DNA from: Leucoraja ocellata
Taxonomy: Eukaryota
NCBI GenBank assembly: GCA_036785375.1
Contig: JAWMAR010004301.1
Coordinates: forward strand, 1 to 54,656
DNA length: 54,656 nucleotides
Direction: 5' to 3'
Shown here: positions 45 to 53,879 of the stretch, piece after piece
How positions within the stretch are numbered: position 1 is the first letter of the stretch
Layout: each line of letters begins with the position of its first letter
Notes under the pieces: generated by a model
Seen by the model: only the letters and a program-made list of their open reading frames with translations
The model's database searches: none
What the model was told of the DNA's origin: nothing
Made by a program: the position numbers and the translations under genes

Positions 45-225
45 TGAACTGCAGATACCGGTTTATACCAAAAGGTAGGCACGAAGTGCTGGAGTAACTC
101 AGCGAGTCAGGCAGCATCTCTGAAGAAAATGGATAGGTGACGTTTCAGCTTGGGACCCGTCTGAAGAAGGGTGATGTCCCGAAATGTCACCTACCCTTTT
201 CACTCCAGCACTTTGTGCCGATCTA
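45..225. mobile_element. Short Penelope-type element, head-to-head inverted pair, with degenerate hammerhead motif
   Basis: Antisense arm GAACTGCAGA...GGAGTAACTCAGC...GGTGACGTTTC, then sense arm CTGAAGAAGGG...CCCGAAATGTCACC. Confidence 0.7.
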
Positions 226-769
226 CAATATTCTTCCGTTTTGTTGGCCCGATTTCATGGAATTATAACCTGCGCCATATTTTTAAAGTATTTTTCTAGT
301 GATAAATGTTGAGGTGACAAATCAACTAAAGCCAGAAAAAGAAACATATGTTCCTCCATCATATGTTTTTCAGTGGCAGCTCAATCATCATTAGCCTCTG
401 TGTTAAGATCTGGAAAGGCACTCTTCAAAATCTGCCACTTTAGGCAAAAGCTCGTGGTGAACTGTTTTGATATCTCCCTCTCTCCCCGGCGGCTCAGTGA
501 TGAATGGTGTTAAAACTTAGTGTGTGCTAATAATCTTATGAGACACAATGTTATTGTTGGTAAGAACTAGCACGGAACTCAGTTCTTAAACAGACTTTAT
601 CCAATCTTCATTCAGTCTAGATCACACTTCAGCTGAAAGGATTAATTGCTGATCATTTTCTCCAGAATCAACCATATTTCCTTCTGGTACAGCTGGAGCC
701 CGTGGAGTCTTTGGAAACACACACAGTCATACCATCCTCCACTATTTTTTCTTTACACTCCTCACATTT

Positions 770-900
770 TTATTAACTCTTCCCCAGATTCTCTGCGACA
801 ATTTACAGTAGCCGATTAATTGCGATTAATCTCTGGGATGGGAGGGGGGAGGACCAGAGCACCTGGAGGAAACCACAAAGTCACACGGAGAACATGCAAA
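770..900 (-). mobile_element. Degraded V-SINE fragment
   Basis: GAGCACCTGGAGGAAACC...CACGGAGAACATGCAAACT is the reverse complement of the V domain seen in intact copies. Confidence 0.6.
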
Positions 901-990
901 CTAGTGTAGATGGGGCATGTTGGTCGACGCCTGCAAGGTGGGCCAAAGGGCCTATTTTCCACATCGTATGACTATGTTGGGCCTGTGAGA

Positions 991-1430
991 AGTCAAGTTG
1001 TCAAGTCAAGTTTATTCGTCACATACACATACGAGATGTGCAGTGAAATGAAAAGTGGCAATGCTCGCGGACTTTGTGCAAAAAGACAAACAAGCAAACA
1101 ACCAAACAAACTACAAACGGAATCACATATTCCTTTACATATTAAATATTGTGGGCAGAAGGAAAAAGGTTCAGTAAAGTTAGTCCCTGGTGAGATAGGA
1201 GTTTACAGTCCGAATGGCCTCTGGGAAGAAGCTCCTTCTCAACCTCTCCGTTCTCACAGCATGGCAATGGATGCGTTTGCCTGACCGTAGCAGCTGGAAC
1301 AGTCCATTGCAGGGGTGGAAGGGGTCTCCCATGATATTGTTGGCTCTGGAGTTGCACCTCCTGATGTATAGTTCCTGCAGGAGGGGGGCGAGTGAAGTTC
1401 CCATAGTGCGTTCGGCCGAACGCTCTACAG
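991..1430 (-). mobile_element. Rex1/Babar LINE, 5'-truncated 3' fragment
   Basis: ORF 1180-1404 reads IMGDPFHPCNGLFQLLRSGKR...RTERLRRSFFPEAIRTVN (Rex1 ORF C-terminal pattern); tail GACGAATAAA(CTTGA)n. Confidence 0.85.
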
Positions 1431-1496
1431 GTGCAACACCGAGCCTCCCATTCCCACCATCTCTGCAAAAGTCTGGAAGGTTGCAATAATGTCATT

Positions 1497-1818
1497 GGGC
1501 AGCCTAGTGGTGCAGCAGTAAAGTTGCTGCCTTACAGATGTGGAATAAAAGGAAATTGGGTAACACAGTGGCAGTGTTGCTGCTTCACAGTGCCAAAGAC
1601 CCAGGTTCGATCCTGCTTATGGGTACTGTCTGTGCAGAGTTTGCACGTTTCCCGGTGACGACGTGGATTTCCTCCAGCTGCTCCAGTTTCCTCCCACATC
1701 CCAAAGACGTGCAAGTTTGTAGGTTAATTGGTTTCTGTAGATTGTCCCGAGTCGAGGATAGAACTAGTGTTTGGGTGATCGCTGGTCGGTATGTCCACGC
1801 TGTATCGCTAAGCTAAAT
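1497..1818 (+). mobile_element. HE1-type V-SINE with a partial extra head
   Basis: tRNA-like head (TGGTGCAGC; GGTTCGATCC), V domain GAGTTTGCACGTT...TTTCCTCCCACATCCCAAAGAC, tail GCTGTATC..TAA. Confidence 0.85.
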
Positions 1819-2297
1819 AATTTTACCTCAAATCATCTGCACCTTTGTATGGTAAAGTCAAATTCCTGCTCAGAATGGTCCCATAGTGATGTAGCTAGGG
1901 TCAGAAATACAACAGTGCTGGTTTTATACGGTTTATGAGGAGATTTGTACCCTACAGTGAGAGGGTGAGGTCACTAAAGCTGCTTAGCAGAAAACTAGTC
2001 ATGTGGTTGTAAATACTCCGCCCCCACCCTCTTCAGAGTGAGCTATAATCTGTTGTCAATGGAAACAGATTATTGTCTCTTAAACCTAAATTAAAAGGGC
2101 TACTGTGATGCAACATCGCACAAGAAAAAACATACCACTTGGGTTAAAACATGCAAAAATAACTTGACTGCTTAGAAACGGATTATGGAGTCCCGTTTAT
2201 GGCTTATAGTTTCCAACTGCAATGATAGTAGAGTATTTAGGAAAATCGAGGGTTAATTGCAAATTGCAGAGTCCATGAGTTTCCTTCTGGGTCAGTT

Positions 2298-2800: not shown

Positions 2801-2874
2801 CAATCTGATACATTATCACATGAAAGTATCTGGACGCATGCAGTGCTGTTCCAACAGGACACGTCTCACACCAC

Positions 2875-2964
2875 AGATAGACAGAAAAAGCTAGAGTAAC
2901 TCAACGGGATAGGCAGCGTCTCTGGAGAGAAGGAATGGGTGACGTTTTGGGTCGAGACCCTTCC
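2875..2964 (-). mobile_element. Short Penelope-type element
   Basis: GAGTAACTCA..GGCAGCGTCTCTGGAGAGAAGGAATGGGTGACGTTTTGGGTCGAGACCCTTC. Confidence 0.7.
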
Positions 2965-3024
2965 CCTCATACCACATCCTGCCCCTCCCTCAACCTTCAG
3001 GAATGGTAGGATTAGGATTATGCA

Positions 3025-3465: not shown

Positions 3466-3474
3466 ATATTCTAG

Positions 3475-3575
3475 AGATAGATGCAAAACGCCAGAGTAAC
3501 TCAGTGGGTCACGCAGTATCTCTCGAGAAAGGGAATCATGATGTTTTGGGTCGAGGCCCTTCTTCATACAGAGTA
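3475..3575 (-). mobile_element. Short Penelope-type element (degenerate)
   Basis: GAGTAACTCAGTGGGTCA...TTTTGGGTCGAGGCCCTTCTTCA. Confidence 0.65.
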
Positions 3576-4264: not shown

Positions 4265-4575
4265 CAGAATAGGCGACTTACATTAACTCGCACTTATCTA
4301 ATCTATGAGTTTCATAGTCTGTATAACTCGTTATCACCTAGCCCACAGCCAACAATGGACCATTGTGGGCCCCACCTTTCCTTGATCATTGTTACTTTTT
4401 GCATATCTTTTGTTCATTTGTTCAACGTCTCTCTATAACACCGTCTATGTCTCTCATTTCCCTTTCCCCTGAATCTCAGTCTGAAGAAGGGGTTCGACCC
4501 AAAATGTCATCTGTGCCTTTTTTCCAGAGATGCTGCCTGGCCCGCTGAGTTGCTCCAGATTTTTGTGTCTATCTT
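4265..4575 (+). mobile_element. Longer Penelope-type terminal-repeat fragment with hammerhead-like motif
   Basis: ACAATGGACCATTGT hairpin, then CAGTCTGAAGAAGGGGTTCGACCCAAAATGTC...GAGATGCTGCCTGGCCCGCTGAGTT; shared with 30905-31190. Confidence 0.7.
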
Positions 4576-5529
4576 ACCTAAACAATCCTGTGCTCAGTCC
4601 CTAGTGCAAACAAGGCAGTCTGTAATTTCCACAACATTGTGGTTTACATTGGAAACAAGCCGGCAATGGCGGTGGTGCTTACCCAGAAGGCCGTGCTTCC
4701 CAGAAAGTGCCCTGGACTCAGCTGGACGACACTGAGACAGTTAATACTCAGTGTGTTTTGTTCCAGGCAGCAGATGGGGATGGTGATTCCGACTTACGTA
4801 ACATCTCTCAGAATGTAACACTTAAGTGATTCGGAGAATGCCTGTGTAAGGCTGTTTGCATGCATGGGAAAATAACAAAAATTCAAAAACAAACTCAATA
4901 TTGCAGTTACTGGAAATCTGAAACAGAAAATTTAGGAAACACTCAGCAAGTCTTGCAGAAGTTAATATATTTCAAATATAAACCTTCACTGGGACTTGAA
5001 TCTGGTGCAGAGTTACAGATGAAGCTTTCACCAGTCACATGCCATGCCTAATTATCGCTGTTTCCAGTATTTCGTAGACCAGCCTTGGCAAATGAAAAAT
5101 AAATTAAAGAATGCAGTCTCTAAAACAGAAATGGTTGTAAAGTCTGGTTACTGTCTGTCAGTCAGATGAGCGCAGTCTGTTATGTGGAAAGTTGCAGAGT
5201 GAGTTTAACTTGGTGTTTTTGGTTTGGCACAAGGTTTTGAGAATCAGATATCTTTATGCCAAGTGTAAGTGCCGAATGGAAATTTAGACTCATACTGTGG
5301 ATTATATATCCACACTGTTTAACGTAATGGACATTGCATTTTTGTGCCACTCAAGTGGTTATTTGATGTTGATCCTTGTTAGTGAGGAGACTGAAGCTAG
5401 AAATTAACTGCTTCTATATTTTGGTTAAAAGGTTCTGTCTAATCCTTACCCGATTTATTGGGATATTTGCACTGCTGGACAGGCCTATTTTTAAATTCCC
5501 ATTTTAAAATGCCCACGAAAGTATAGTGG

Positions 5530-6008
5530 TTCACCCATATCCCTCTAAACCTTCCCTGTCTATATACCTGTCCAAATGTCTTTTAAATATTGTTATAGTA
5601 CTGGCCTCAACTACCTCCTCTGACAGCTCATTCCACATACCCACATACCCTGTGTGTGAAAAGGTTGCCTCTCAGTTTCCTATCTCACCCTCCTCACCTT
5701 AAACCTATGTCCTCTGGTTCCTGATTGCCCAACTCAGGGTTAAAAACTGTGCATCTACTATATTTATTCCCCTTATGACCTAGTACACTTCTATAAGATG
5801 ACCCTTCATCTTCCTGCACTCCAAGGAATAAAGTCAAGTCAAGTCAAGTCAAGTCAAGTCAAGTTTATTTGTCACATACACATACGAGATGTGCAGTGAA
5901 ATGAAAGTGGCAATGCTCGTGGACTAGTCCTAGCCTGCCCCACTTCTACCCGTAGCTCAGGCCCCCAACATGCCTGACAACGTACCTGTAAATCTTCTCT
6001 GCACTCTA
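5530..6008 (-). mobile_element. CR1 3' fragment interrupted by a Rex1 tail
   Basis: Colinear with 2298-2800 (CACCTTAAACCTATGTCCTCTGG, CAACTACCTCCTCTGACAGC). Confidence 0.85.
5832..5925 (-). mobile_element. Rex1 tail insertion with (GTCAA)n
   Basis: Near-identical to 1000-1073 (TTTATT.GTCACATACACATACGAGATGTGCAGTGAAATG). Confidence 0.8.
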
Positions 6009-7015: not shown

Positions 7016-7249
7016 CTCATATTTTGGACGTTTTCAATAGCAGCGCTGCTTATCTCCTCAGGAGAGCAGGCATCACCGGACTATGAACGTACTGCAGAAT
7101 GGATACAAGTTATCTTGCCACATCAATTGCTAGTTGCAACGTTCAACATAATCCTTTTTTTATCAAGATATTTCATGTGAAAACAAAATAATTTTTTTTT
7201 GCAAAATGAAATATATTCTTTTCACGGGTGAAACAAAAGAGCTATCACT

Positions 7250-7465
7250 CCAGAATACAAAGCGCTGGAGTAACTCAGCGGGTCAGGCAGCATCTTGGAG
7301 AACATGGATACATGATGTTTCGGCTCAGGACCCTTCTTCAGACTTCAGTCCCGACACGAAATGTCGTCTATCCATGTTCTCCCAAGATGCTGCCTGACCC
7401 GCTGAGTTACTCCAGCACTTTGTGTCCTTTCGTGTAGACCAGCATCTGCAGTTCCTTGTTTCTAT
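7250..7465. mobile_element. Short Penelope-type element, head-to-head inverted pair
   Basis: GCTGGAGTAACTCAGCGGGTCAGGCAGCATCTTGG at 7264 and its reverse complement at 7382-7417. Confidence 0.75.
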
Positions 7466-7574
7466 CATTCCTGGGTAATTTAGCATTGCTCGGAAACTTC
7501 AACAGGTGCCCTCTGTCATGTCAGGGGATCAAAGAACGGCATTCCGACCTCTCCCCAATTCCCACATATTAAAC

Positions 7575-7870
7575 AAGATTACTGCAGATGTTAGAAACCT
7601 GAAATAAACATGGCAAACACAGGAACACTCAGCAGGTCAGACTTGTTACAAAAAATATAGAGCAGAGTTTGGGTAGGACAAAGGGATTATCTGAAATAGT
7701 TTCTGCAAGGAGAAGCTGTAAAGGTCAAATGGGTTAATGGGAACACTTTTATTCCCCTTATCCTATCCATATTTCCCCCACCACCTTATCTCTGATGTGA
7801 AATTCACTTATTTTGATGAAGGATCTTCAACTTGAAACTTTAACTCTGTTTCTCTTTTCATTTTCCAATG
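7575..7870. mobile_element. Older subfamily of the Penelope-type element (decayed)
   Basis: ACTGCAGATG...ACACTCAGCAGGTCAG and TGATGAAGGATCTTCAACTTGAAACTTTAACTCTG; a similar relic at 4895-4990. Confidence 0.5.
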
Positions 7871-8104
7871 TTTGAAGTTGATAAGTTCCTGAAATCTGGG
7901 ACAATGATGTAATGGCAACTCTTATCCATTTTTACACGGTGGTGCAGCGGTAGAGTTGCTGCCTTACAGCGGCAGAGAACGCCAGGTTCAATCCCGACTA
8001 CGGGTGCTGTCTACACAGAGTTTGAACATTCTCCCTGTGATGGCGTGGGTTTTCCCCGGGTGCTCCAGTTTCCTCCCACACTCCAAAGAGTAGGGTTTGT
8101 AGGT

Positions 8105-8243
8105 GATGTAGGAAAGAACTGCGGATGCTGGTTTAAATCGAAGGTAGACACAAAACGCTGGAGTAACTCAGCGGGTCAAGCAGCATCTCTGCAGAGAAGG
8201 AATGGGTGACGTTTCGGATCGAGACCCTTCTTCAGACTGATCA
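8105..8243 (-). mobile_element. Short Penelope-type element with 10-bp TSD and hammerhead core
   Basis: GTTTGTAGGT at 8095-8104 and 8244-8253; minus strand reads TCAGT-CTGAAGA-AGGGTCTCGATCC-GAAAC-GTC. Confidence 0.8.
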
Positions 8244-8313
8244 GTTTGTAGGTTAATTGGCTTTGGTAAAGATTGTAGATTGTCCCTAGTGTATAAGATT
8301 GTGTTAGTGTATG

Positions 8314-8450
8314 ATAGAAACATAGAAACATAGAAAATAGGTGCAGGAGGTTGCCATTCGGCTCTTCGACCCAGTACCGCCATTCATTGTGATCATGGCT
8401 GATCGTCCCCAATCAATAACCGGTGCCTGCCTTCTCCCCATATCCCTTGA
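8314..8450 (-). mobile_element. CR1 3'UTR inserted in the V-SINE
   Basis: (CATAGAAA)n tail, ATCATGGCTGATC, CCTGCCTTCTCCCCATATCCC. Confidence 0.85.
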
Positions 8451-9789
8451 TGCATGGGAATCGATGGTCAGCTTCGACTCAGTGGGCCGAAGGGCCTGTT
8501 TCCGCGCTATATCTCTAAACTAAACTAAACTAAACTACACAATGTAACATTTTAAGAAAAAGTAATCCTGGAAATGTTGTGCAATGTATTGTAAACGAAA
8601 CGTGAACAGTTTACTACCTACGTTAACTTCATACAGCAACCACCATTCAAGGTAGAAAGTGCTGAGTCAACATGTCTGGGAATAAAAATCTTCAACCGCA
8701 CAAAAATAATATGCAGCAAACCGTACTTCTTTCATATGGGGAGGAGGAAGAGGATTGGTTGGAGATGAGCCCTGAGCTCAATTAAAATAATTGCGTTCAG
8801 TCTGGAAACCCAGTGAATTGATTAACGCCAGCCATCCCGCCACTAACTCAAATAGTCCACAGTTTCTCATCCCTTGACAGTCAGCTCCAACCTAAAAACT
8901 CAGACAGGAAACATTGTACCAATCGGTCATGCTCACATTACCAGCTTTAAAACAGCCACAACCATTTAACAATATATTTCTTGGCCTAATCGCGGGCAAT
9001 AATTAAAAAAAATGTTTGATTCAGATGACAGACAATTTTTTATGTAATCTTCCTGGAGATTGGTTTTCAATTAGTTTAATAAATCATCTCCTGTGCTGAA
9101 ACTCATTCCATGTAGAATGGATTATGTTTTCACTTCATTCATTTTTCAGGATCTGGCCATCGTTGGCAAGGCCAGCATTTTCTCCCCACGCCTAGTCAAC
9201 TAGTAAGCTGCTTTCTTGAATCTCTCTGGTTTTCGGCTACAGATGCTCCCTCAATGCTATTTCAACATTGTTTTAATCATCACATATGCAACTGCACAGT
9301 AAAATTAAATTTGCATATACAGTACCACACATTCAGGAGCCGACATGTTTTACCGCCATTATTCAAAGTCCAGTCGCTTGTTGTACGGGAGCAGTTCCTG
9401 CAAAGTGACATCCCTCTCCTCTCCCGGCCATCCTTGTGTCACGGGACGCTTCCTGCAGCCGACCTTAAAGGCGCTGGAGGAATGACCCCGGTTCACCCTC
9501 CCACCGGCCCACTCCTTGCACCCAACGACTCCGGCTCCCTCCCGGTTACACTGTCCGACGAGCCTTCGGGCGGGTTCCTGGTCCCGTCGATCAATGTGGC
9601 AGGACTAGCTACTCATGGTTACAAAAGAACAGCAATATATTTTCAAATCTGGATGGTGAGCAACTGGTGAGGGGAACCAGCTGGCGGTGGTGCTCCATTT
9701 CACTGTTGCCCTTGTCCTTTGTAAAGGTTGGGAGGTGCTGTTGGAATGATCTAAGCAAATAACTGCAGTGCAATTCTGAATGGTCATCA

Positions 9790-10178: not shown

Positions 10179-10557
10179 GGGTGGCACATAAGCACATAGG
10201 CACATAGGGTGGCCTAGTGGTGCATAGGGTGGCACAGTGGTGCAGCTAGGAGATCCGCTGCCTCACAGCGCCAGAGATCTGGGTTCGATCCTGACATCGG
10301 ATGCTGTCTGTGTGGAGTTTGCACGTTCTCTCTGTAACCATGTGGGTTACCTCCAGGTGCTCCCGTTTCCTCCCACATCCCAAAGACATGCAAATTTATT
10401 GGATAATTGGCCTCTTGTAAATTGCCCCTAGCGTGTAGGGAGTGGATGCGAAAGTGGGATAGCGTAGAACTGGAGAGAACGGGTGATCGATGGTCAGTGT
10501 GGACTCAACGGGCCAAAAGACCAATTTCTATGCTGTATCTCCAAACTAAACTAAATC
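10179..10557 (+). mobile_element. V-SINE with stuttered 5' end
   Basis: Repeated GGGTGGC(A/C) heads, B box GGTTCGATCC, V domain, (TAAAC)n tail. Confidence 0.88.
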
Positions 10558-11769
10558 AAGCTTCTGGAGAATTGCTGGCCCAGCACTCATCTGACTTGTG
10601 CCTTGTAGATAGTGGAAGGACTTTAGGGCGTTAGGAGGTAACATCCAACACATGATACTGGGACAATGATCGCTTGATATTATGGAAAAATGTAGAATGT
10701 TCATGATGATGGACTCAGCCATCAAATCTGAAGGACAAGAGGTCAGAATCTTATGGGTTTGGGATGATCACTTCCTGGCTCTTTGAGAGGACAAATGTAG
10801 TTTCCACTTTTCAGTGTTCGGTTGAAAGTTATCTAGTCTTGCTACATTTAAGCTTGGGCTATTTCCTGTGAAACTGCAAGTTGAATTGTGCACTCTGCAA
10901 TCATCAGCCAATATCACCTCTGACATTATAGCACCAGGGATAAAATGGATGAAGCAGCTGAAGATGGTTGAGCCCAGGACACTGGCCCGAGGATCTCCTG
11001 CAGGGATGTTCTCACGTTGCAACAATTGCCGTTGCCTACCTCGATGCCACACTCAGTGAAAATGCCGCAATGATGTCAAGGATGATCAGTGACATCTTAT
11101 TGTTAATTATGTTATAACAAGATCAGGAGCCAAGTGGTTCATCAAAACCCAAATTGAGCAATATTGAGCAGATTATTGGCGTACAAGTACACTTACTAGC
11201 ACCATCAACAACACGTTTCACCACTTTATCAATGGCAGAGTAGATTGGGTGGTAATTTGGTTGATTAAAATACAATAGAATAGGCAATGGAAGATATCAA
11301 TGGATAAATCAGTCTCCTGTCCCTTTAATGGCCATAAAGAATTTTCATGTTGCTCTATTTTCAGGGAATGATTTATTGCAGCAACCACTGGAAAATATTA
11401 TCTTACCTTTGAGGAAGTTACAAAGTTTGAGTTGGAACAAGCTGCAGACCCTCACTAGAACCAGGTGCCCAGAACCATTGTCTTTGAACAGAAGTGATGA
11501 TGGTAGCCTGCCAGATGGGCGTTAAACGGGCATCTACCATGAAGAGAAGGCTGGATCTGAAAGGAGGTGACTTCAACCAGAGAAGCTGTTGCAGCTGGAT
11601 CAAAGGGCAACTGATATTGCAGTGATAAAGGACCGGAGCTTTGTGGGCTGCAGGTTCAACCTGCCTGACTTTGACCTCCCCGATATACCTGTGACAGACA
11701 ACATTACTTGGAGTGGCTTAGTGAAGAAAAACACCCTTCTCATCACCAAGACACACTCAGTCGCATGAG

Positions 11770-11935
11770 AAGAAACAAGGAACTGCAGATGCTGGTTCAC
11801 AAAAAGAGACACAAAGTAAGTGAAGTAACTCAGGGGGTCTGGCAGCATCCCTGGAGAACATGGATAGGTGACGTTTCGGGTGAGGAGCCTTCTTCAGTCC
11901 TGGCCCGCTGAGCTACTCCAGCACTTTGCATCTTT
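11770..11935. mobile_element. Short Penelope-type element with partial inverted arm
   Basis: GGAACTGCAGATGCTGG...GGTGACGTTTCGGG...CTTCTTCAG then CCCGCTGAG.TACTCCAGCAC. Confidence 0.7.
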
Positions 11936-12164
11936 TCTCAGTGGTATTATGTAGCATCACAATAATTCTGAATATGCTGGACTCAGACAGGTCCCATGAG
12001 TTGCTGTGGATCTTCAACAGCAGCAGAATGATACCCTGCCAAAACCTGAAAGGTATGGCAGATGATGTTTCTGACATGTCGTTTCGCCCTCCTCTTGTTT
12101 GGAAACATGATAGAAATAATTATAAAGGGTCAGATTTTGGTCTTAGAAAATCCCAGCCTTGATT

Positions 12165-12770: not shown

Positions 12771-13775
12771 CTCGAGCTTTCGTACCAACATGTGATTTGA
12801 CCGGATTGCATGAAGAACAAGTATTTTATTATAGCTCTGTATAAGTGACAATAAATAAGCCGTTGATGCTCCAACACAGGACTTCACAGAATTAAGTTTA
12901 TCAACTGATCAGATCTAAGCTCTGCAGTCCTGCCAGAATTGTGAAAGGCATTAGACAATGAAACAGCTAACAAAAGGACAAGTCCCCAAGGAGATCCTCA
13001 ATCCTCATTCTCAAGCATTTGTAGATTCAATCTGAATGCTAGAGACAAGGCAGAAGTATCTTATGTTCCGTCGTAAGTACTGAGATGATCGTCTCCACCA
13101 TCACAGAAGCTGGCATTCAGCCAGTTCGATTTACTCCAGGTGATATCAAGAAATGGCTGAGACATTGGATTCATATCTACCGAGATACAGCCAAGTCTAC
13201 AAGACCAGCCAGTAGTGGTACTGAAGACCTCCACTACAGATGTATTGTGCATACAGGCAAACTGTTTCAATACATTAACCTGACGACATGGAAAATTGTC
13301 CAGGCATGACTTGTTCACAAAAACCAACGTGGTTAATTACTGCCCAATCTGCACAACCATCTTCAGCAAAGTGGCAGAAGGTGCGGTGGGCATTGCCATC
13401 AAGTGGTACTTACTCACACATACAGTGGCTGCAATGCTCACCATGTACAAAGCACACTGTAGTTATTCAACCAGCCTCCTCCAACAGCTCCTCCCATGAC
13501 CTCCACCACCAAATAATTCAGGTGTGCCAGGCACATTGCAACATCATCACCTATTTCAGGTTCACCAGCCTGATTTGAAAACATATTGCTCTACCTTCAA
13601 CATCGCTGAATCTATATCCTGCAATGTCCTACCCAGCTGTAGGCTTAACGTCACCAGAAGGTCTGCAGTGGTTTAGGAAGGAACTCACCATCACCCCTTC
13701 TCAACTGCACTAGGAATTAACAATAACTGATGGCCTTGGCAACAATGTCCAAATCCCAATAAATGAAAAAGAAAG

Positions 13776-13892
13776 CCTGAAGAAGGGTCCCAACCCAAAT
13801 CAACATCTATCCATGTTCTCCAGAGATGCTGCCTGGGTTACTCCAGCATTGTGTGTCTATCTTTGGTATAAACCAGCATCTGCGGTTCCTTT
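13776..13892 (+). mobile_element. Short Penelope-type element
   Basis: CTGAAGAAGGGTCCCAACCC...CCAGAGATGCTGCC...AAACCAGCATCTGC. Confidence 0.7.
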
Positions 13893-14348
13893 ATATTATA
13901 TTACATTAAATGAGAATTCAAGTCGCCATAATCTGATTATGATCTCATTTTATAAAAGCAGAATAATTCCAGAAGGATATATTTGATCATTTGTAGATTC
14001 GCTTTGATTAATTTTTAACAATTCAGGATTAAATTAGTACTTAATGACAGGGAATTAAGAGAACTATTAGCATCAGCACTAATGGTGATAACATCTATAA
14101 GAAATAAAATCTAAATGTGTTTCAGATGGTAAACTCCAACTTTCCGATTGTGAAACTAGCCTTTGTACAAACAAAGCAGTTGGGAAACTTTTGAAACGTT
14201 GCAGTGGATATGTATCTGGTCTTTAAAAGGTGTTCTTCATTGTGGCCACTGGGTATTACCAGCAATGTCACTTTTAAACCAAGTTGTTTCTGAAAACCTT
14301 TGTCATTTTTCTTTGTTGGAAGTACATTAAGAAATGTAATATTGTAAT

Positions 14349-21892: not shown

Positions 21893-22110
21893 TTACACAA
21901 AAAAGCTGGAGAAACTCAGTGGGTGCAGCAGCATCTATGGAGCGAAGGAATTATTGGCATGGGCTGACAAATCCTATGGTTCTGAAGAAGAATCCCGACC
22001 TGAAACCTCACCCATCCTATTTCTCCAGAGATGCTGCATGAACCTCTGAGTTACCCACGTACTTTGTGGTTATCTTTGGTATAAACCAGCACCTGCAGTT
22101 CCTTTCTATA
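21893..22110. mobile_element. Two Penelope-type fragments (second-subfamily antisense piece plus sense copy)
   Basis: 21893-21950 matches the 43229 palindrome arm; 21981 CTGAAGAAGAATCCCGACCTGAAACCTCACC. Confidence 0.7.
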
Positions 22111-22339
22111 CACTACGGCTTAATTTGCCTGAAATACTCCAAAATAGGTACATCAATGCAATTTGAACTAAAATTCTCATTATTGACGCAAACGGCAAAA
22201 ACAATGTTAGTCCAATAAGATTTCAATTATTTGAGTCATAATTTCACATTTATTTCATTTCGCTGATATATTTTTGGTCTTGACAAGACCTGTTCATGAG
22301 GTTTAAACTTAATACAAGCAATTGGATATTTTAAATGAA

Positions 22340-22887
22340 GCCTCGTGAAAATCTGGCCATTTTTTTATCACAGTAACTAATCTCGAACTGATAGGTTTGC
22401 AAGAGTCATTTCAGAGGGCCATTAAGGGTTAAGGCATCTCTCTCCATCACCATCTATACATCACCATCTATATCTCCCGATTCCCTTTCCCCTGACTCTC
22501 AGCCTGAAGAAAGGTCTCGACCCGAAACGTCACCTATTCCTTCTATTCAGAGATGCTGTCTGACCCGCTGAGTTACTTCAGCTTTTTGTGCCTATCTACT
22601 AAGGGTTAAGCACACTTCTGTGGATTGTGTGGAATTATATTCTAGGTTCAATGGCAAATTTCTTTCCCTGATGGACATTAGCAAACCAGATGGTTCTTTA
22701 TCATCAATCCAGTAGTTTCATGGCCAATTTCTACTGATACTAGCATTTTCTTCCAGATTTATTTAATGACTTAATCCCAATTTAAATTCACCATTTGTTG
22801 TGGTGGGATTCAAACTCACATCTCCAGGTCAATAGTCTATACCTCTGGATACCAATTCCATAACTTAACTATTGTGCCACTATACCT
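22340..22887 (-). mobile_element. Old tRNA-derived SINE (non-V type)
   Basis: Minus strand GGTATAGTGGCACAATAGTTAAG...GAGTTTGAATCCCACCAC (A/B-box-like), then body. Confidence 0.55.
22434..22599 (+). mobile_element. Short Penelope-type element with 11-bp TSD and intact hammerhead core
   Basis: TAAGGGTTAAG at 22423-22433 and 22600-22610; CTGAAGA-AAGGTCTCGACCC-GAAAC-GTC at ~22504-22531. Confidence 0.8.
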
Positions 22888-23007: not shown

Positions 23008-23390
23008 TATAGTCATAGAGTCATACAGCGAGGAAATACGCTAACCAGCATTCTCATCTACGCAAGTCCCTCCCGTCTACGTTTGGCCCATATTCCTCTA
23101 AACCTATCCTATCCATGTAACTCTCCAAATGTTTTTCTCAAACATTGTGATAGTACCTACCTCAACTACCTTCCCCGAAGAAACAGTAGACACAAAGCTG
23201 GAGTAACTCAGCAGGACAGGCAGCATCACTGGAGAGAAGGAATGGGTGACGTTTTGGGTCGAAACCCTTCTTCAGAGACTGCTCTGCACTTCAAGTCCTG
23301 GCCTGCTCAACCTCTCCCTACAGCTCAGGCCCTCGAGTCCTGGAAATATCCTCGTAAATCTTTTGTACACTCTCTCCAGTTTAACAGCAA
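23008..23390 (-). mobile_element. CR1 3' fragment interrupted by a Penelope-type element (23185-23276)
   Basis: AGTCATAGAGTCATA tail, CTCAACTACC, CTCAACCTCTCCCTA; insert GGGTGACGTTTTGGGTCGAAACCCTTCTTCAG. Confidence 0.75.
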
Positions 23391-27229: not shown

Positions 27230-27655
27230 CAGGAACTGCAGATGGTGGTGTCCACCAAAATAAAACACAAGGTACTGGAGTAACTCAGCAGAAGAGGCAG
27301 CAGCTCTGGAAAACATGCATAGGTGACATTTTGGTTTGGGACCCTTCTTCAGACCCAAGAAAAAAATCCAGTCTGAAGAAGTCTCAACCAAAACGTCACC
27401 TAACCATAAATAGACACAAAAATGGTGGAGTAAGTCAGCAGGTCAGGCAGTATCCCTGGAGAAAATGGATAAGTGACGTTTCAGGTTCGTTAGATCCGAT
27501 CTGAAATGTTGCATCCATTTTCTCCGCAGATGCTGCCTGACCTGCTATTACAACATTTTGTGTCTATCTTTGGTGTAAACAACATCTGCAGTTTTTTTTC
27601 ATTATATATCACCTATCCATGTTCTCCGCAGATGTTGTCTGATCTAGCATTTTGC
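27230..27655. mobile_element. Nest of about five Penelope-type fragments (-,+,-,+,+)
   Basis: Repeated GGAGTAA.TCAGCAG / GACCCTTCTTCAGAC / GTCTGAAGAAG / CAGATG.TG.CTGA blocks. Confidence 0.75.
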
Positions 27656-27814
27656 GTGCGACTCAGGATGCATTTCCACACCCTTACTCTGGAGGGCAAC
27701 TCTGGAAGTCACTTTCTAGTCCTTTCAGACTGACTGCGTTAAATCTTTCATTGGCATGGATTACATGGAGATCACGATGATGAATATCACCAAAGTGTAA
27801 ATATAACAGAAAAT

Positions 27815-30372: not shown

Positions 30373-30904
30373 CTTCAGGCACAGAATGTGTATTTGAACA
30401 AGGTTTGAATTTACGTTATTGGAAACTTTGTACGAATGACCCAGGTTCAAGTCAGCAGCAATTTTAACCTCATTGAAAAAAGAGCCGAGATTGAATGGAC
30501 TTTTTCAAGGTCACGGTGCAAGAATATTTACAAGTGTTATATATAGACCAATATTCTGCAGGGATACATTACTGCTTCATTTTATCACCCATTACTTTCT
30601 TAGCGACAAAACCATATGGAATTCTAGTGCATTTAAGGATAACACAATGTTGTGCAGTGGCCTGAGTCCTGGACTTCATCCAGGTTACTGTTACTCAGCT
30701 GTGAGTGGCAATCCAGTGTCACAAATGCCTCATGTCATGGGAGGACCCAAAGCAATGTCACCTCACATTGGCCGAGGTGGAAGAGGGAAAGAGGGCAAGT
30801 GAACAGCAGGCAACAATGTCTTGTGGAGCCATTAGCTCAATTCCGACCTCTTCCAAAATCAGACAACACAGGGTCGTCCTGCCGAGTTTCACGGGTTGTA
30901 TCAC

Positions 30905-31190
30905 TCGTCATCACCTTCTCCACAGCCAACAATGGACCATTGTGGGCTCCACAATTCCTTGATCATTGTTACTGGCTTTGATTTTGTCCTTTTGCATACG
31001 GTTCATCCGTTTGTTATTTGTGGCTTTTCATACCTCTAGTTTCCCTCTCCCCTGACTCTCCGTCTGAAAAAGGGTCTTGACCTGAAACATCATCTATTCC
31101 TTTCCTCATGAGAGGCTGCCTGACCCACTGAGTTACTCCAGTTTTTAGTGTCTTTCTGTGTAAACCAGCATCTGCAGTTTCTTCCCACGC
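30905..31190 (+). mobile_element. Longer Penelope-type terminal-repeat fragment
   Basis: CCACAGCCAACAATGGACCATTGTGGGC shared with 4343; CTGAAAAAGGGTCTTGACCTGAAACATC. Confidence 0.7.
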
Positions 31191-38709: not shown

Positions 38710-39257
38710 CAGTACAGTTTTGGTCTCCTAATCTGAGGAAGGACATTCTTGCCATAGAGGGAGTACAGAGAAGGTTCACCAGACTGATTCCTGGGATGTC
38801 AGGACTTTCATATGAAGAAAGACTGGATAGACTCGGCTTGTACTCGCTGGAATTTAGAAGATTGAGGGGGGATCTTGTAGAAACAAACAAAATTCTTAAG
38901 TGGTTTGACAGGCTAGATGCAGGAAGATTGTTCCCGATGTTGGGGAAGTCCAGAACAAGGGGTCACAGTTTAAGGATAAGGGGGAAATCTTTTAGGACTG
39001 AGATGAGGAAAACATTTTTCACACATAGTGGTGAATCTCTGGAATTCTCTGCCACAGAAGGTAGTTGAGGCCAGTTCATTGGCTATATTTAAGAGGGTTA
39101 GATGTGGCCCTTGTGGCTAAAGGGATCGGGGGGTATGGAGAGACGGTAGGTACAGGATACTGAGTTGGATGATCAGCCATGATCATATTGAATGGCGGTG
39201 CAGGCTCGAAGGGCCGAATGGCCTACACCTGCGCCTAATTTCTATGTTTCTATGTTT
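38710..39257 (+). mobile_element. Young CR1 3' end
   Basis: VQFWSPNLRKDI..., ORF 38796-39068, tail (TTTCTATG)n. Confidence 0.93.
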
Positions 39258-39767
39258 CCTAAATGGTTAGCTATTTCCTCTACAATTATTGACGATAGCA
39301 TCTTGAGAATCATCGATGTTAAACTAATCCTACACCCCAAGATGTTTTTTCTCTCTCTCATTACCAGAACACCATGGATGCAGAGCGTATTATGTACAAG
39401 ATACAACGCTGTGACTCATGATGGTTTCCTCAAAGACACCTCACAAACTGTAGGTATAGTTTTCTCAGCTTGAAATGGAATAAACAGATTCTAGAAATGC
39501 TGCTAATATCATGATACTCGGAACACAATAGAGTCATTGTTGATAAATGGTGCTGGCATCGAGGCATTTGCTGACAAGCATGTTTTTTTAAAGACAAATG
39601 ATGTTTAACTAACTATTGAGCAACAGAGGAGAAATGAGGGAAATATAAATACGTATATGGAAATACAGTTTTTGTAATCATCAAGACTGAGGGCGATAAA
39701 TAAAAAGAGTTTGGAGCAGCCTTGGAAGAAAATTGGCCATGTAAAAGGAAACATAGAGTAGCTGTGG

Positions 39768-39860
39768 AAGGTAGACAAAAAATGCTGGTGAAACTCAGCG
39801 GGTGAGGCAGCATCTATGGAGAGAAGGAATTGGCGACATTTCGGGTTGAGACCATTCTCC
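39768..39860 (-). mobile_element. Short Penelope-type element
   Basis: AAACTCAGCGGGTGAGGCAGCATCTATGGAGAGAAGGAAT..GCGACATTTCGGGTTGAGACC. Confidence 0.7.
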
Positions 39861-40320: not shown

Positions 40321-40826
40321 CTGTACTGAAGCAAGATACATCTGCAACAGACAGTACCAATGTAGAAGGTGAGACTGCGTGCATTCTGGATACTGCTTGT
40401 TCTCTACCAAGGGTTTGTTGTTTATACAATTACCAAAGAGCCTGAATCAAGTGCAGATTCAGGTGGCTGCTTTAAGGGAGGACTGCATTACAATGTGGAT
40501 GCAGCTCAAATGCTCCAAAGATCCTGTGAGAGATATCACAGTGTGGATTTACTGATGTCGACCCAATACAGTGCAGCGGAAGGCGAACAGGAGCAAGTGA
40601 AAACTGTTATGTTGGGACCAAGACCCTCAGACACAATCCATAAAGGGAAATGCTGTATGGATGATTGTGTGCCTTTGAAGGGAAAAAAATGAAAGGTTCC
40701 ATTGTCAGCAGGAAATGAGAGTGGAAGTCAGGAAGCAACACAGTGTGAAAGCAATGCATAAATATGCAGAACCTTAAAATGTAACCAACGTAGATGGTAT
40801 TATAACTGAGCGGGTGACTTCAGTAA

Positions 40827-41268
40827 AGGGCCTGTCCCACGAGCATGCGACTCCATGCGGCAAGCGCGACCTAAAGGGCCTGTCCCACCAGCATGCGCCT
40901 GCACGCGGCAAGTGCAACCAAACCAGAAGCGGGGGCCGCGCGGAGGTCGAGTGAGTGACATGAAGTTCGAGCGAAGTCCGCGGGAAGTTCGTGCGTGACA
41001 TACGCCGTTGAGGTGGCTGCGGGCTGGCAGGCCGTTGGCGCGCAGAATTTTTGAACACGGTCAGTTTTTCGGAGCCCCGTGCGATATCGGGACCAGCTCC
41101 GCACAACTCCATACGGCTCCGGCGATCGAAGTGGGACCAGCGCCACGAGGCCATACGGCTCAAGCGACCACGTTAGGTCGCGCTTGTCGCATGCAGGCGC
41201 ATCCTGGTGGGACCGGCCCTTTAGGTCGCGCTTTCCGCATGGAGTTGCATGCTGGTGGGACAGGCCCT
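40827..41268. mobile_element. PIF/Harbinger-type MITE with doubled TIRs
   Basis: TAA TSD (40824-40826, 41269-41271); ends AGGGCCTGTCCCAC...GTGGGACAGGCCCT; ~47-bp terminal unit present twice at each end. Confidence 0.9.
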
Positions 41269-41992
41269 TAATGCACCAAATACAATGTAGAACCTGAGCT
41301 CCAATAGTAATTAATAGTTACAAAGTCAAATTGCTCTGCCATTTGCTTCAGTAAGTAACAACACCCAATAATCTACAGATACAATGAGCTTCTTATCAAA
41401 ACGAAGCAAATTGCATTGATGTCATTGAAAAGAGTGACCCATTCTCTGAGCACAACACCGAAACAGAAAACCATGGGAGCACATATTATTCCACAGAGTT
41501 TGCCATATTGTCATGTCCTTGATATAAATAGTCTCTGTGTATCACAGCTGAGATACGTTGTTATTAAAAACAACATCCTCCAGGAACGATTAGTGTTTGG
41601 CCTGACTGTAAAAGAGCATTTTTAAATGAACTACTAAATAGGTGACATACTTGCACAATAAGTTTCATGTGTTAGATGGAAAATTGAGAAATGGAGATTG
41701 GAAGACACCTGTTTCCCATTTCCCTTCCATATGAATTTATGTGTGCGTGACTTGCCTTAAAAAAATTTCGACTAGAACCATTTATGTTGAAGCCCAGCGT
41801 GGGCTTTACCACATTGCGGTATGAATGATTGTTATGCTATCTTAAAATGTCGTAGCCATGTGCTACACAAGTGTATTTCATCGAAAAGAGTGCCACGATT
41901 GAACAAAAATCCAAAACAATGTCATAATTATGAGTTGGCTTTGCATATTAACTCAATTGCAGAGCAATACAACCATAAATATGCATTTGTGA

Positions 41993-42800: not shown

Positions 42801-43107
42801 GCCTGTAATAACGTGACTTGTGAAGGTGCAATGCAACACCTACAGCAGATGTAAGGTGTTTACAGCAAGCTACACATGAATATCCCAACGTTGCTGTCAA
42901 TTCCATGTAGTAGTAATGGCAGTAGACACATGTTTCAGCATCATTACCATTTCCAATCATTCAGTCGGTCCGTTTCACCCCATGAAGAAAGGGTTGGAGT
43001 ACATTTTCACCATTGCCATCCCATTCCAATTCCTCAATAAGATGGGCATTTTTCTCCAACAATTTAAACCTAAATTGGACGGACACTACAAGTAGACAAT
43101 GGATCAC

Positions 43108-43432
43108 AGCAGAAGGGTCTCGGCCCGAAACGTCACCCATTCCGTCACTCTCCAGAGATGCTGCCTGTCCCGCTGAGTTGCTCCAGCATTTTGTGTCTAT
43201 CTTCCGAGTAAACCAGCATCCTCAGTTACACAAAAATGCTGGAGAAACTCAGCGGGTGCAGCAGCATCTATGGAGCGAAGGAAATAGGCAACGTTTCGTC
43301 CCGAAACGTTGCCTATTTCCTTCGCTCCATAGATGCTGCTGCACCCGTTGAGTTTCTCCAGCATTTTTGTGCACCTTCGATTTTCCAGCATCTGCAGTTC
43401 CTTCTTAAACAGCATCTGCAGTTCCTTCCTCA
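43108..43432. mobile_element. Penelope-type element with a nested second-subfamily palindrome (43229-43371)
   Basis: GAAGGGTCTCGGCCCGAAACGTCACC at ~43111; 70-bp arms with 3-nt loop and one mismatch. Confidence 0.8.
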
Positions 43433-43547
43433 ACATGACATCAGTTTATTCTGCTAATTAATCTAATACAAAAAGGACAGTGTGATTCTAGTGCAGCCAG
43501 TGCTATCTCCACTCTTGATTCTCTGCATGAATCACCAACGACCCAAC

Positions 43548-43835
43548 ATTTAGTTTCGCTTAGAGATACCCCATGGAACAGTTCCTATGGTCCATTGAAT
43601 CCAGACCAACAATCGACCACCCATTCACACTCGTTCTATGTTATCCTATTTTATCATCCACTCCTTACACACTATGGACAATTTTTATAGAGGCCAATAA
43701 ATCTATGAACCTTGCATGTCTTTGGTATGTGGGTGGAAACCGGCGCACCTGCAGAAGAAACTCACGCAGTCACATGAAGAACGTGCAAACTCCACACAGA
43801 CAGCACAAAAGGTCAGGATTGAACCCAGATCCCTG
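43548..43835 (-). mobile_element. Older V-SINE
   Basis: GGAAACCGGCGCACC, GAACGTGCAAACTCCACACAGACAGCAC, GGATTGAACCC. Confidence 0.8.
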
Positions 43836-47239: not shown

Positions 47240-47392
47240 GTAGAAACGAGGAACTGCAGATACCGGTTTACAAAAGAAGACATAAAGTGCTGGAGTAACT
47301 CAGCGGTTCAGGCAACATCTCTGGAGAACACGTCACATATCCATGTTCTCCAGAGATGCTGGCTGGCCTGCTTTGTTACTCTGTGTATTCTT
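47240..47392. mobile_element. Short Penelope-type inverted pair (centre deleted)
   Basis: CATCTCTGGAGAACA / TGTTCTCCAGAGATG arms; another relic at 47545-47645. Confidence 0.7.
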
Positions 47393-47832
47393 CTGGAAAT
47401 GCTGATGTTTGTTTTACTTGAATTAATCCAGCAAATGGAGAGAGAATTAGCGGATGGGCGGCCATCACTTTGGATATATCAAGGGAACTTGAAGCGGTTT
47501 ATACAACAATGCAAAATCAAGCGTGGTAAAAGCACAAGAGATAGAAGGCACAAGAAACAGCAGACACGGCAATCTTGAACAAAACACAAAGTGCGGGAGT
47601 AATGCACAGGTGGTCAGGCAACACCTGTGGAGAGAATCTTGGGATATTGGATTCAAAATCAGTTTATGCTATAATGACAATGGATTGGTCAGTGTAAAAG
47701 ATATTTATGGTATGAGGTGATTATAACGTTGGTATCTCTCAGTTTATAAATGTTATACACACATTTAAATAAGGTTTGGAGAGCAGATGAGTGAGACGCT
47801 GAGCCAAAATATAACTTAACCAATGCACACAG

Positions 47833-50620: not shown

Positions 50621-50652
<32 letters not shown>

Positions 50653-51030: not shown

Positions 51031-51214
51031 CCCTTCCTCATGTTCATGTTCAGGCAGATTCCTGTGTTTCATCCCAGTGTGTGTTCCCTTTGCCAAGGTC
51101 AGTTTGTGAACACCCGTTCTTGCAACCATCTAAATAACAATGCAAAGTGAGCAAGAGATATATTTTCCATAATATTTTGTGTTCAAACATTGCAGCCTAG
51201 AGATGAGATCAAGT

Positions 51215-51363
51215 AGTTAAAAATAGCGGAGTCAGGGGATATGGGGAGAAGGCAGGAATGGGGGTACTGATTGGGGATGATCAGCCATGATCACATTGAG
51301 TGGCGGTGCTGGCTCAAAGGGCCGAATGGCCTACTCCTGCACCTATTGTCTATTGTCTATTGT
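51215..51363 (+). mobile_element. CR1 3'UTR with (CTATTGT)n tail
   Basis: GGATATGGGGAGAAGGCAGG...GATCAGCCATGATC...GGCCTACTCCTGCACC. Confidence 0.85.
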
Positions 51364-51514
51364 CCAAATACCTCAGATTTGCACACCTCACGTGATTTGT
51401 ACATCACAATATATCATTCTCCGTTCATTTCTCCTTTCGGCAGTAGACCGCATCCTAGGAGTGAATAATGGTGACACACCCAGATAAATCAGATCTTCAT
51501 CGCACAGTTGAAAC

Positions 51515-51642
51515 TAGGAACTGCAGATTCTGGTTTACAAAAAACGACACAAAGTGCAGGAGTAACTCTACGGGTCAGGCAGCATCTCTGGAGAAATGCT
51601 GCCTGACCCGCTGAGTTATTCCAGCACTTTTATGTCCTTCGT
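51515..51642. mobile_element. Short Penelope-type inverted pair (centre deleted)
   Basis: CGGGTCAGGCAGCAT / ATGCTGCCTGACCCG arms. Confidence 0.7.
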
Positions 51643-52194
51643 AGCATAATGCCAGTCTGAATGACTCACCAAATTGTCCATTGTTCCCCATCTCCTCCTC
51701 CGAAAGTACAAGCCCAACAAACCCTATCCCGCTGAGACCCCCACTGACCAACCCAAGCCATGATCTGAATGTTAATCAAGCTCCTCTCCAATGGACCACC
51801 TCCCTGACTCTCTCACCCACCATTCATCACTCACCCACTGACTCCCTCACCCACAGATAAACACCCACCTCCTCACACTATCCATGGTTCAAGTCCCACC
51901 TTCCTCACATGCCAACCTGCACCACCCCCAAACTCCTGATTCGCCTGGAGCCCCAATCTCCATCCATCATCTTGTTCCATGTCAACCCATATCCTGATGA
52001 TCAACCCAACTCACACCCAACATTCACTGGCCACATACCCAACCACCAACAAGGCCCACAACAGTCAGCTGATTTCAGACCTATCACCTGGGAGACACCA
52101 AGGCTCGTTGCTCTGCATGGGCACGTCACTAGCAGACTGTAGGCCAGTCCATCTATCATATTCTCCAGGGTACACTAGAACTTCCAGACGTACT

Positions 52195-52350
52195 TACAAT
52201 ACAACATTTAAAAGACATTTGGGCAGGAAAGGTTCAGTGGGATATGGACCAAAGTTGGGCAGGGAGGACTAGCATACTTGGGGCACCTTGGTCTGCATGG
52301 ACAAGTGGGGCTGAGGCATTGATTCCATGTTGTAATACTCTATCTATGTC
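52195..52350 (+). mobile_element. Older CR1 3' end
   Basis: CATTTAAAAGACATTTG...GGGATATGGACCAAA. Confidence 0.7.
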
Positions 52351-53283
52351 TGTAGCAGTGGATCCTATAATGCCTCAACACTCATTATTTTGCATACCCA
52401 AGGTTTCTTTTCTTTTTTTATCCGCAGATCATTCGCAAACCTTTGGGGCCTAGTAACTCTTATAAACTGCTGGAGACCGCAAAGCAAAGTTATATCTTAG
52501 CAACCTGAGCTTTGCTACATTCTTTGGAAATCCAGAGACTCTGGGGCAAATACAAAGAATTGTCAGGTATGTTGGAATAGGCAAGTCCCAACTCTGCTAC
52601 CATGTGGAGTTAATAAGTCGATCAGGCAAAACATATCCAAACTTGGCCGTTTCCTGGAATATTAAAATATAAAATGCAAGTGGTGTACATATTAATCTGT
52701 GATAAATCTTGCCTTTTGTAAGAAACGTCCGATGGTCCAACAGTCCTGATGTGAATGCTGGTTAACAGTAAATAAAAGTGACAAACACTTGAAACGGCTT
52801 CAGGTGGAAAGAAAACATTACTTTGCCGTCCATAACAAAGCCGTTAATCTCTGCATTCCGTCGTGATGAGACGTGTTACGCACTGGAAACTGATCACTGG
52901 CATTAAATAATGTGAGAAAATCCCGCTGGTTTTATTGAGCTCCATACATTCACTGGATGATTGGAGCTGGCTGTACACATTAGAACGCAGCAAGCCAACA
53001 ATATTTCTGCATCGGATCTGTGACCAAAGACAAAAAAAATCACTACTGACAACTTGATGTCAGCGGATGAGTTAGAGCTGGGGCAGAGCATGCATCCGCA
53101 CTCACGGAAAACTCAAATCAAGCTCAATTTCCTCCGACAATTGTAACAGACCTGATGAGAGGAACTACAGCAGCTACTCCCAACAAAAGCTCAGTAAATG
53201 TGCCAGAGAGAATAAAAAATAGTGAGTGAGACAGACTCACCGACTGTGGGCTGCTATTCAATCAATGTCACTTAGAACAAGGA

Positions 53284-53879
53284 GGTCTGAAGAAGGGTCC
53301 CGACCCAAAATGTCACCTATCCATGTTCTCCAGATATGCTGCCTGCCTCACCGAGTTACTACAGCATTTTGTGTCCTTTTGTGTAAACTAAGTAAGTAAG
53401 TTTATTGGCCAAGTATTCACATACAAGGAATTTGCCTTGGTGCTCCGCCCACAAGTAACAACAAGACATACAGTGACAGTTACGAATGACTCAGAAAACA
53501 CTAAACATTAATAATAATAAAACATTAATGATAAAACACCATTGATCAAGCATGTGAACCAACAAATTACCAGATCAAAGGGAGGCTACAGATTTTTGGC
53601 TGTTGAGTAGAGCAACTACTCGTGGATAAAAACTGTTTTTATGTCTGGCTGTGGCAGCTTTGGCAGTCTGGAGCCGCCTTCCAGAGGGAAGTGGTTCAAA
53701 GAGTTTGTGGCCAGGGTGAGAGAGGTCAGAGATGATTTTGCCTGCTCACTTCCTGGCCCTAGTGTACAGTTCATCAATGGAGGGAAGGTTGCAGCCAATA
53801 ATCTTCTCTGCTGATCGGACGATTCGCTGCAGCCACCAGGTGTCGTGCTTGGTAACATCTGCAGTTTCTTGTTTCTATA
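53284..53879 (+). mobile_element. Short Penelope-type element split by a Rex1 insertion
   Basis: CTGAAGAAGGGTCCCGACCCAAAATGTCACC...GTGTAAAC, resuming AACATCTGCAGTTTCTTG at ~53853. Confidence 0.75.
53389..53835 (-). mobile_element. Rex1/Babar LINE 3' fragment
   Basis: Minus strand LQRIVRSAEKIIGCNLPSIDELY...IISDLSHPGHKLFEPLPSGRR...KNSFYP; tail CAATAAA(CTTA)n. Confidence 0.88.

Follow-up and report, generated by a model that had tools for sequence, protein, structure and literature searches.

Minimal type-I hammerhead ribozymes have been described in the pseudo-long terminal repeats (pLTRs) of metazoan Penelope-like elements (PLEs), among them Xena, Poseidon and Neptune of fish, coelacanth and Xenopus (Cervera and de la Pena 2014, PMC4209133). 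According to that paper the motifs are mostly dispersed and single, are attributed to truncated PLEs, and can have inverted neighbours. Here we describe a repeat family with such a motif in a 54,656-nucleotide stretch of the Leucoraja ocellata genome (contig JAWMAR010004301.1, assembly GCA_036785375.1), hereafter the window. Our data suggest that its segments are probably the decayed, truncated ends of a Penelope-type element, of a known kind and with the usual minimal hammerhead motif. Thousands of minimal hammerheads have already been reported in truncated PLE ends of fish, coelacanth and Xenopus, so the discovery as such is modest. Cartilaginous fish were not found in the 56-motif alignment or Table S1 of PMC4209133, and PLEs have been reported as expanded in the whale shark.

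Three further systems are close to the family. The Pen families of Adineta, which are endonuclease-positive (EN+) PLEs, have inverted pLTRs, junction palindromes, and target-site duplications (TSDs) of 8-10 bp, and one inverted pLTR can bear a 31-bp tail (PMC3846280); the EN+ scheme of PMC8557442 gives a 30-40 bp tail that is often at one end only. In Poseidon of Anolis (PAc) both target strands are cut and extended, two internal starts of the reverse transcriptase (RT) define the tail, and the hammerhead is protein-assisted and dispensable for insertion, with no RNA ends at the cut (PMC11167929). Non-LTR retrozymes are non-coding, carry a type-I hammerhead and are related to pLTRs, and they are defined by head-to-tail tandem units and circular RNA (PMC7229834; bioRxiv 10.64898/2026.07.22.740005).

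The window is repeat-rich eukaryotic DNA with 42% GC and three N gaps. No host exons were recognised in it: none of 237 frames of at least 62 aa matched a Pfam family at a score exceeding that family's curated cut-off, though short exons could escape, and no tRNA gene was recognised either. A profile built from five seed copies of the window found 28 segments in a first round. The rebuilt profile found 33 segments at E<=1 and none in the reversed window that served as control; one of the 33, 7581-7642, was weak (E=0.68). Together the segments sum to 3,470 bp (6.3% of the window) and resolve to about 22 insertions between 39 and 53879, or one per ~2.5 kb, each 55-310 bp long and without an open reading frame (ORF). 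The sequence-only reading of this DNA had proposed a dispersed non-coding family of about 25 copies at about one per 2 kb, and the family itself stands; the reading had overlooked eight inverted pairs, two 3' ends, flanking direct repeats and sequence groups. Among 30 segments (the weak 7581 hit, one split piece and one duplicated tail excluded) 15 lie on each strand, and identity to the window majority averages 83% (range 70-90%). There are at least three sequence groups within the family, named A, B and C after a tree built from 23 segments, in which only group C has strong support (96/95) and the others are suggested. A literature search found no description of this repeat sequence, which is weak evidence.

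We examined the hammerhead-like core, counting positions from core nucleotide C3 as 0. The majority motif consists of CUGAAGA, a bulged A, a 4-bp helix II (GGGU/ACCC), GAAA, the palindrome ACGU and a 2-bp helix I, with the predicted cut after GUC, which is the consensus that had been drawn earlier. It agrees with the published minimal type-I hammerhead consensus of CUGANGA(H), a helix II with G10.1-C11.1 and GAAAN-palindrome-NUH, including the bulge after A9 and the palindromic 15.2/16.2 (PMC4209133), and this supports a minimal type-I architecture. The descriptor CUGANGA..GAAAN(S)UH matched five times in the window against a mean of 0.15 in 100 shuffles. Compared with the published motifs, the 4-bp helix II and 2-bp helix I are at the short end of the range, and helices I of 2 bp are also known from Drosophila virilis and Culex (PMC4209133). 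The Penelope element of D. virilis is reported there to have its intron 3' end at the 5' end of helix I, and a pyrimidine tract and CAG are likewise placed here as a candidate splice-acceptor-like site. The D. virilis motif differs in its longer helix II and in possessing a small helix III.

The best motif is at 8208..8235 on the minus strand. Its C3 is 8235, helix II is 8227-8216, GAAA is 8215-8212 and the palindromic helix III is 8212-8209; the predicted cut falls between 8208 and 8207, and the 2-bp helix I pairs 8237-8236 with 8207-8206. Of the 17 copies spanning the motif, 6 retain an intact core, and this is the only one of the 17 with core, helix II, palindrome and helix I all present, its helix II including one G-U pair. 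The sequence-only reading had named two more best copies, and neither holds: 22504-22531 has lost the G10.1-C11.1 pair, and 43111-43137 is without CUGA.

The insertion anatomy carries the assignment to PLEs. The element is polar, with fixed 3' ends and ragged 5' ends: starts range from -190 to +56, and the 3' ends fall into two groups, +89..+100 (tail-less) or +121..+135 (tailed), the ~35 bp difference being the tail. This is the 5' truncation with fixed 3' ends of EN+ PLEs. We found eight insertions arranged as head-to-head inverted pairs, the pLTR arrangement of EN+ PLEs, and in 8/8 pairs exactly one arm bears the tail, which corresponds to the optional 30-40 bp tail at one end (0.5^8 = 0.004 on the assumption of independent tails at even odds; for one of the eight the tail was judged from a distal piece split off by a nested pair). 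A possible exception is ~12 nt at 53274-53284, upstream of the 53285 copy, that by eye resemble an inverted tail end; this is possibly a tiny second arm, making a tail-plus-tail pair that breaks the one-tail rule. The central junction differs among all eight pairs, and some junctions lie in near-palindromes.

Flanking repeats also fit an EN+ PLE, for which TSDs of about 8-14 bp are expected. Repeats scoring at least 8 flank 5 of 21 loci, whereas only 2.9% of 380 mismatched pairs of flanks reach that score, one of the five being the duplication around the nested pair, and eleven hand-picked loci have 10-13 bp flanking direct repeats with 8/10 to 11/11 matches. One pair is nested inside another copy (27408-27608 within the older pair 27231-27656), and at 43228 a younger pair landed on another copy, the one case of tail-to-tail contact. 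A ninth pair, 21895/21981, was considered and dropped: its left arm is flanked by a separate TSD and falls in a different group, although the one-tail pattern fitted nonetheless.

The Penelope origin proposed in the sequence-only reading is therefore supported by the motif and by an anatomy matching the PLE hallmarks given in PMC3846280 and PMC8557442, and the proposed PLE membership rests on five such non-coding hallmarks. As in the Adineta Pen families, we see 5' truncation, head-to-head inverted pLTRs, junction palindromes, TSDs (8-12 bp there), a 30-40 bp tail at one end and insertion into existing copies; the inserts here differ in being only 55-310 bp, in having no ORF and in having 5' ends clustered at the ribozyme edge. 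As in PAc, two 3' ends bracket the tail ~90-135 nt past the hammerhead and no ends lie at the cleavage site, whereas the PAc ORF starts inside helix II and no long frame is linked to the copies here (PMC11167929). In the way it works the family resembles a hammerhead-bearing 3' pLTR from an EN+ PLE, the hammerhead being minimal, and it fits the definition of neither a retrozyme nor a miniature inverted-repeat transposable element (MITE).

The segments are thus best explained, with good likelihood, as dead 5'-truncated 3' ends (pLTR pieces) of an EN+ PLE that carried a minimal type-I hammerhead in its terminal repeat, left by abortive insertions. Polarity, the two 3' ends, one-tail pairs, TSDs, the motif and decay are observed in the window, and the PLE enzyme, double nicking, internal RT starts and the joining of two cDNAs are taken from published PLE work and the anatomy. 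An RT/GIY-YIG protein would cut both target strands ~10-13 bp apart. Reverse transcription would begin at either of two internal sites, giving 3' ends at +89..+100 or +121..+135, and would mostly halt early, most commonly just past the ribozyme core. Where both nicks were extended, a tailed and a tail-less cDNA would join at their truncated ends, often via short near-palindromes, to give a head-to-head pair; otherwise a solo copy would result. Arkhipova et al. explained junction palindromes by self-priming on an antisense template (PMC3846280), and the window data cannot separate this from the joining of two cDNAs since the arms are mutually closest in only 2/9 pairs tested.

Several results weigh against this explanation. 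The low count of mutually closest arms neither supports nor excludes a single-event origin, and a clear TSD is absent at about half of the loci. GIY-YIG matched 0 of the 237 window frames in Pfam, and the only RVT_1 match in those frames is weak (E=0.006) and lies within a long interspersed nuclear element (LINE) region. No RT or GIY-YIG sequence joined to any copy was found in the window, where the longest copy reaches ~190 nt upstream of the core. Two word-index protein searches with translations of the 22434 copy returned no PLE protein, and a phmmer search with a 68-aa frame gave three matches, namely two proteins that end in the translated repeat and one unrelated repetitive protein. The link to a Penelope ORF that had been proposed thus found no support from frames, Pfam or protein searches in the window and the protein collections.

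Since the five descriptor matches all come from copies of a single family, they amount to one independent observation. No hammerhead family was reported by Rfam at E<=10 for the whole window or two sub-regions, a search in which the reach of the models for motifs lacking helix III is untested. Compensatory double changes in helix II, which the sequence-only reading had looked to as support along with an Rfam match, occurred in 0/4 pairs across 16 copies, close relatives with low power, and the covariation score was equalled or exceeded in 192/500 shuffles. Lastly, the tight clustering of 5' ends departs from simple random truncation. The Rfam, covariation and ORF negatives carry little weight, since the copies are closely related and in neutral decay and the searches did not extend to eukaryotic DNA collections.

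Two observations arose from the protein and genome searches. The C-termini of the predicted proteins P0002 and P0003, the two found by phmmer, are translated repeat and so represent exonised or mispredicted gene ends; therefore the family occurs in other sequence sets. The single match in a scan of GTDB, in a bacterial metagenome-assembled genome with unrelated flanks, was taken as chance.

The clustering of 5' ends was analysed further. Among arms that reach +5, 14/17 stop in -6..+5 against an expected fraction of 0.11 (P ~1e-11), where the expectation is the stop rate between +60 and +6 after boundary correction; P remains <1e-9 after a 50-fold penalty for the choice of window. Nine of 14 solo copies start there. 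An incomplete model does not account for the hotspot: upstream of the copies that start there, the flanks have nothing in common but partner arms, and TSDs abut four of the starts. It coincides with a 9-nt imperfect palindrome and a CAG (-4..-2) that follows a tract of 80% pyrimidine. This tract is present in all three long copies and the acceptor-like AG is kept in 2/3. A footprint of spliced RNA was rejected, since a single splice junction would not give starts spread across -6..+5, several of them with the AG retained. An RT stop, palindrome annealing, a splice-related block and a short master element are all candidates, and we cannot choose among them. A thin literature search found no description of such a 5' hotspot.

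The last candidate is also the rival that survives best. A short non-autonomous element of ~135 nt, starting at the 5' edge of the ribozyme and served in trans by a PLE protein, could be the source of most copies. The excess of stops and solo starts at the core edge, upstream flanks sharing only partner arms, and a TSD abutting that start in several copies all speak for it. We nevertheless regard it as unlikely: the starts scatter over 12 nt and are found in all three sequence groups, three copies of the same group extend 80-190 nt further upstream, and neither a promoter nor a fixed 5' end is seen. Shorn of its retrozyme label, the proposal of the sequence-only reading amounts to this rival; a non-autonomous family is possible, given the clustering of most starts at the edge of the core, although starts ranging from -190 to +56 resemble those of truncated copies.

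A speculative and rather improbable proposal is that the hammerhead acts less as a cutter than as the meeting point of a two-RNA insertion complex. Taken jointly, and with the same doubt, uncleaved transcripts would be held together at the ribozyme via the ACGU and UCAG-N-CUGA (-5..+3) palindromes, and RTs starting at the tailed and tail-less sites from opposite nicks would both stop just past the core. A variant, in which the acceptor-like CAG makes the ribozyme splice-gated and an upstream exon completes helix I, shares this low standing. If true, such a complex would explain the one-tail-per-pair rule, the 5' hotspot and the absent ends at the cut site. In co-folds, the UCAG-N-CUGA palindrome pairs in trans.

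To return to the dead-end PLE explanation, we considered the state of the ribozyme. CpG loss dominates the decay of the copies: among 98 CpG observations, 50 remain intact and 42 read TG/CA, and loss of G12 affects 8/23. The inner core is more uniform than the downstream sequence, with 6 changes from the group majorities against 15.6 expected (P=0.005). This is as expected if the core was constrained in source lineages, although hidden subfamily structure could inflate the figure of 15.6. Helix I has 75% of its cells paired, and its predicted probability is ~0 in the folded copies. The hammerhead fold was absent from the prediction in 6/7 sequences folded, in which the core sits in an alternative hairpin; in the monomer this core-burying hairpin has -10.1 kcal/mol versus -4.8 for helix II alone. 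A designed inhibitory hairpin or switch was rejected, as 25% of downstream shuffles fold as well. The double-hammerhead dimer is likewise without thermodynamic support in the absence of protein (-0.9 versus -26.9 kcal/mol for the best co-fold). In the 3' region an 8-bp pairing of ~+47 with the tail is conserved, with 0/8 compensatory pairs.

Activity of the window copies is predicted to be unlikely, and they would rarely fold, because of decay, alternative folding, a weak dimer and no starts at the cut (0/30 segments start within +26..+30). In the source elements the ribozyme was probably of importance, acting as a dimer, with the aid of protein, or both; in the window copies it decays neutrally.

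These predictions bear on a second rival, that the repeat is the 3' end of an ordinary LINE or short interspersed nuclear element (SINE) whose hammerhead likeness arose once by chance and was then spread by copying. A descriptor excess that comes from one family, the lack of covariation and Rfam support, and a fold left unpredicted in nearly all sequences would suit it. Against this, the match takes in all eleven letters of the core together with the bulge, G10.1-C11.1 and the palindrome, the two 3' ends are defined without poly(A) or a microsatellite, and arms that overlap head to head, with a tail on one side, follow the pattern of PLEs. We consider such a coincidence very improbable.

The sequence-only reading had also called the family retrozyme-like, which would mean that tandem units self-cleave and that the resulting circular RNAs undergo reverse transcription and reinsertion. 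The family does have a type-I hammerhead motif, and retrozymes are reported from the single chondrichthyan sampled in the preprint 10.64898/2026.07.22.740005, which connects them with pLTRs. However, Tandem Repeats Finder listed no head-to-tail array of this element in the window, and the nearest core-bearing copies on the same strand are separated by 522 and 894 bp, with unrelated sequence in the gaps. No segment starts at +26..+30, where cleavage would put it, the ribozyme is minimal rather than canonical, and the inverted pairs would bury it in long predicted hairpins (-54 to -139 kcal/mol). The label falls away, and we give this origin almost no credence. No more credible is a MITE whose solos are broken halves: eight loci are indeed near-perfect palindromes of 130-210 bp with flanking repeats, but a central junction that differs in every pair largely refutes it, the outer ends are unlike (tailed versus tail-less) and so form no terminal inverted repeats, and solos carry their own TSDs.

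The eight pairs are as follows. The first, 39..230, has a tailed minus arm and a tail-less plus arm (core at 161) with an internal deletion. The group B pair 7252..7461 has a tailed plus arm and a 9/10 repeat at 7242-7251 / 7462-7471. At 11768..11936 the tailed minus arm keeps an intact core (C3 11897) and the plus arm is short and tail-less. The older pair 27231..27656 has a tailed minus arm, and its tail-less plus arm is split into 27369-27407 and 27609-27656 by the nested second pair, 27408..27608, which has a tailed plus arm and an 11/12 duplication at 27396-27407 / 27609-27620. The young group C pair 43228..43435 adjoins the 3' end of the 43107 copy. Its arms are 94% identical and neither has the first core box; the plus arm is tailed, and a 24-bp block of that tail is tandemly duplicated at the end of the pair (43386-43435). 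The pair 47241..47392 is without a core, has a tailed minus arm and a 10/11 flanking repeat. Finally, 51508..51636 is joined via a near-palindrome at ~+39 and has a tailed minus arm. Palindromic pairs also account for the top Rfam matches: 43242-43358 and 7298-7381 gave sub-threshold matches to microRNA precursor models (MIR1507, mir-5595), far below the gathering scores. As long hairpins, such pairs are a likely source of false microRNA calls or of small RNAs, and could mislead annotation.

Tailed solo copies include the group A copy 8105..8243 (-), which holds the best motif, lies within a SINE, starts at ~-5 and has a perfect 10-bp repeat at 8095-8104 / 8244-8253. The others are 13774..13894 (+), starting at ~-3; 21981..22112 (+), starting at ~-1 with a damaged helix II; 43107..43228 (+), with a damaged first core box (no CUGA); and an old fragment without a core, 47552..47637 (-). 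The solo 53285..53879 (+) starts at ~-2 and is split by a ~460-bp insert (53391-53852), with its tail resuming at 53853. Tail-less solos are 2875..2965 (-), starting at ~+5 with a 9/10 flanking repeat; 3468..3573 (-), starting at ~-6 with a decayed core; 23186..23276 (-), starting at ~-1; and two of group C, 39771..39860 (-), starting at ~0 with a 10/11 flanking repeat, and the fragment 21894..21948 (-), whose own 10-bp flanking repeat is the reason that it is not paired with 21981.

Three copies reach further upstream. The tail-less 4307..4585 (+) has ~175-190 nt 5' of the core, with C3 at 4481, the pyrimidine tract at 4446-4475 and CAG at 4477-4479. The tail-less solo 22434..22599 (+) has C3 at 22504, the tract at 22469-22498, CAG at 22500-22502 and a perfect 11-bp flanking repeat (22423-22433 / 22600-22610). 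The tailed copy 30884..31190 (+), with C3 at 31064, has a mutated core and has lost the acceptor-like AG. With one insertion per 2.5 kb, the number of such tiny insertions in the genome is likely to be very large, and both of their junctions can be read. Such insertions could address how PLEs integrate: why pairs are inverted, why the tail is on one arm, and what role a poorly active hammerhead has.

Other repeats share the window. A second abundant, SINE-like family of ~330 bp gave 20 BLAST segments (3.5 kb, 68-79% identical), including 10206-10556, 1579-1751, 7935-8529, 34583-34886 and 43548-43835; it may correspond to the elasmobranch HE1/V-SINE. LINE 3' fragments, presumably CR1-like, form 12 segments that are up to 94% identical and end in an 8-bp tandem repeat, among them 37601-38160, 38710-39258, 31723-32184 and 23840-24108. 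A 147-aa LINE frame at 37705-38145(-) matches RT-type proteins, the best named match being from Chiloscyllium punctatum at 63% identity, in keeping with a cartilaginous fish as host. A GC-rich element of ~445 bp at 40824-41269, present once in the window, has ~98-bp inverted ends, each of two 48-bp units, and has the look of a DNA transposon of the non-autonomous type. At 53391-53852, 990-1073 and 5826-5925 there are inserts in reverse orientation, each beginning with a short microsatellite of 4-bp or 5-bp units; these are probably the 3' ends of other LINEs, and the first of them splits the 53285 copy.

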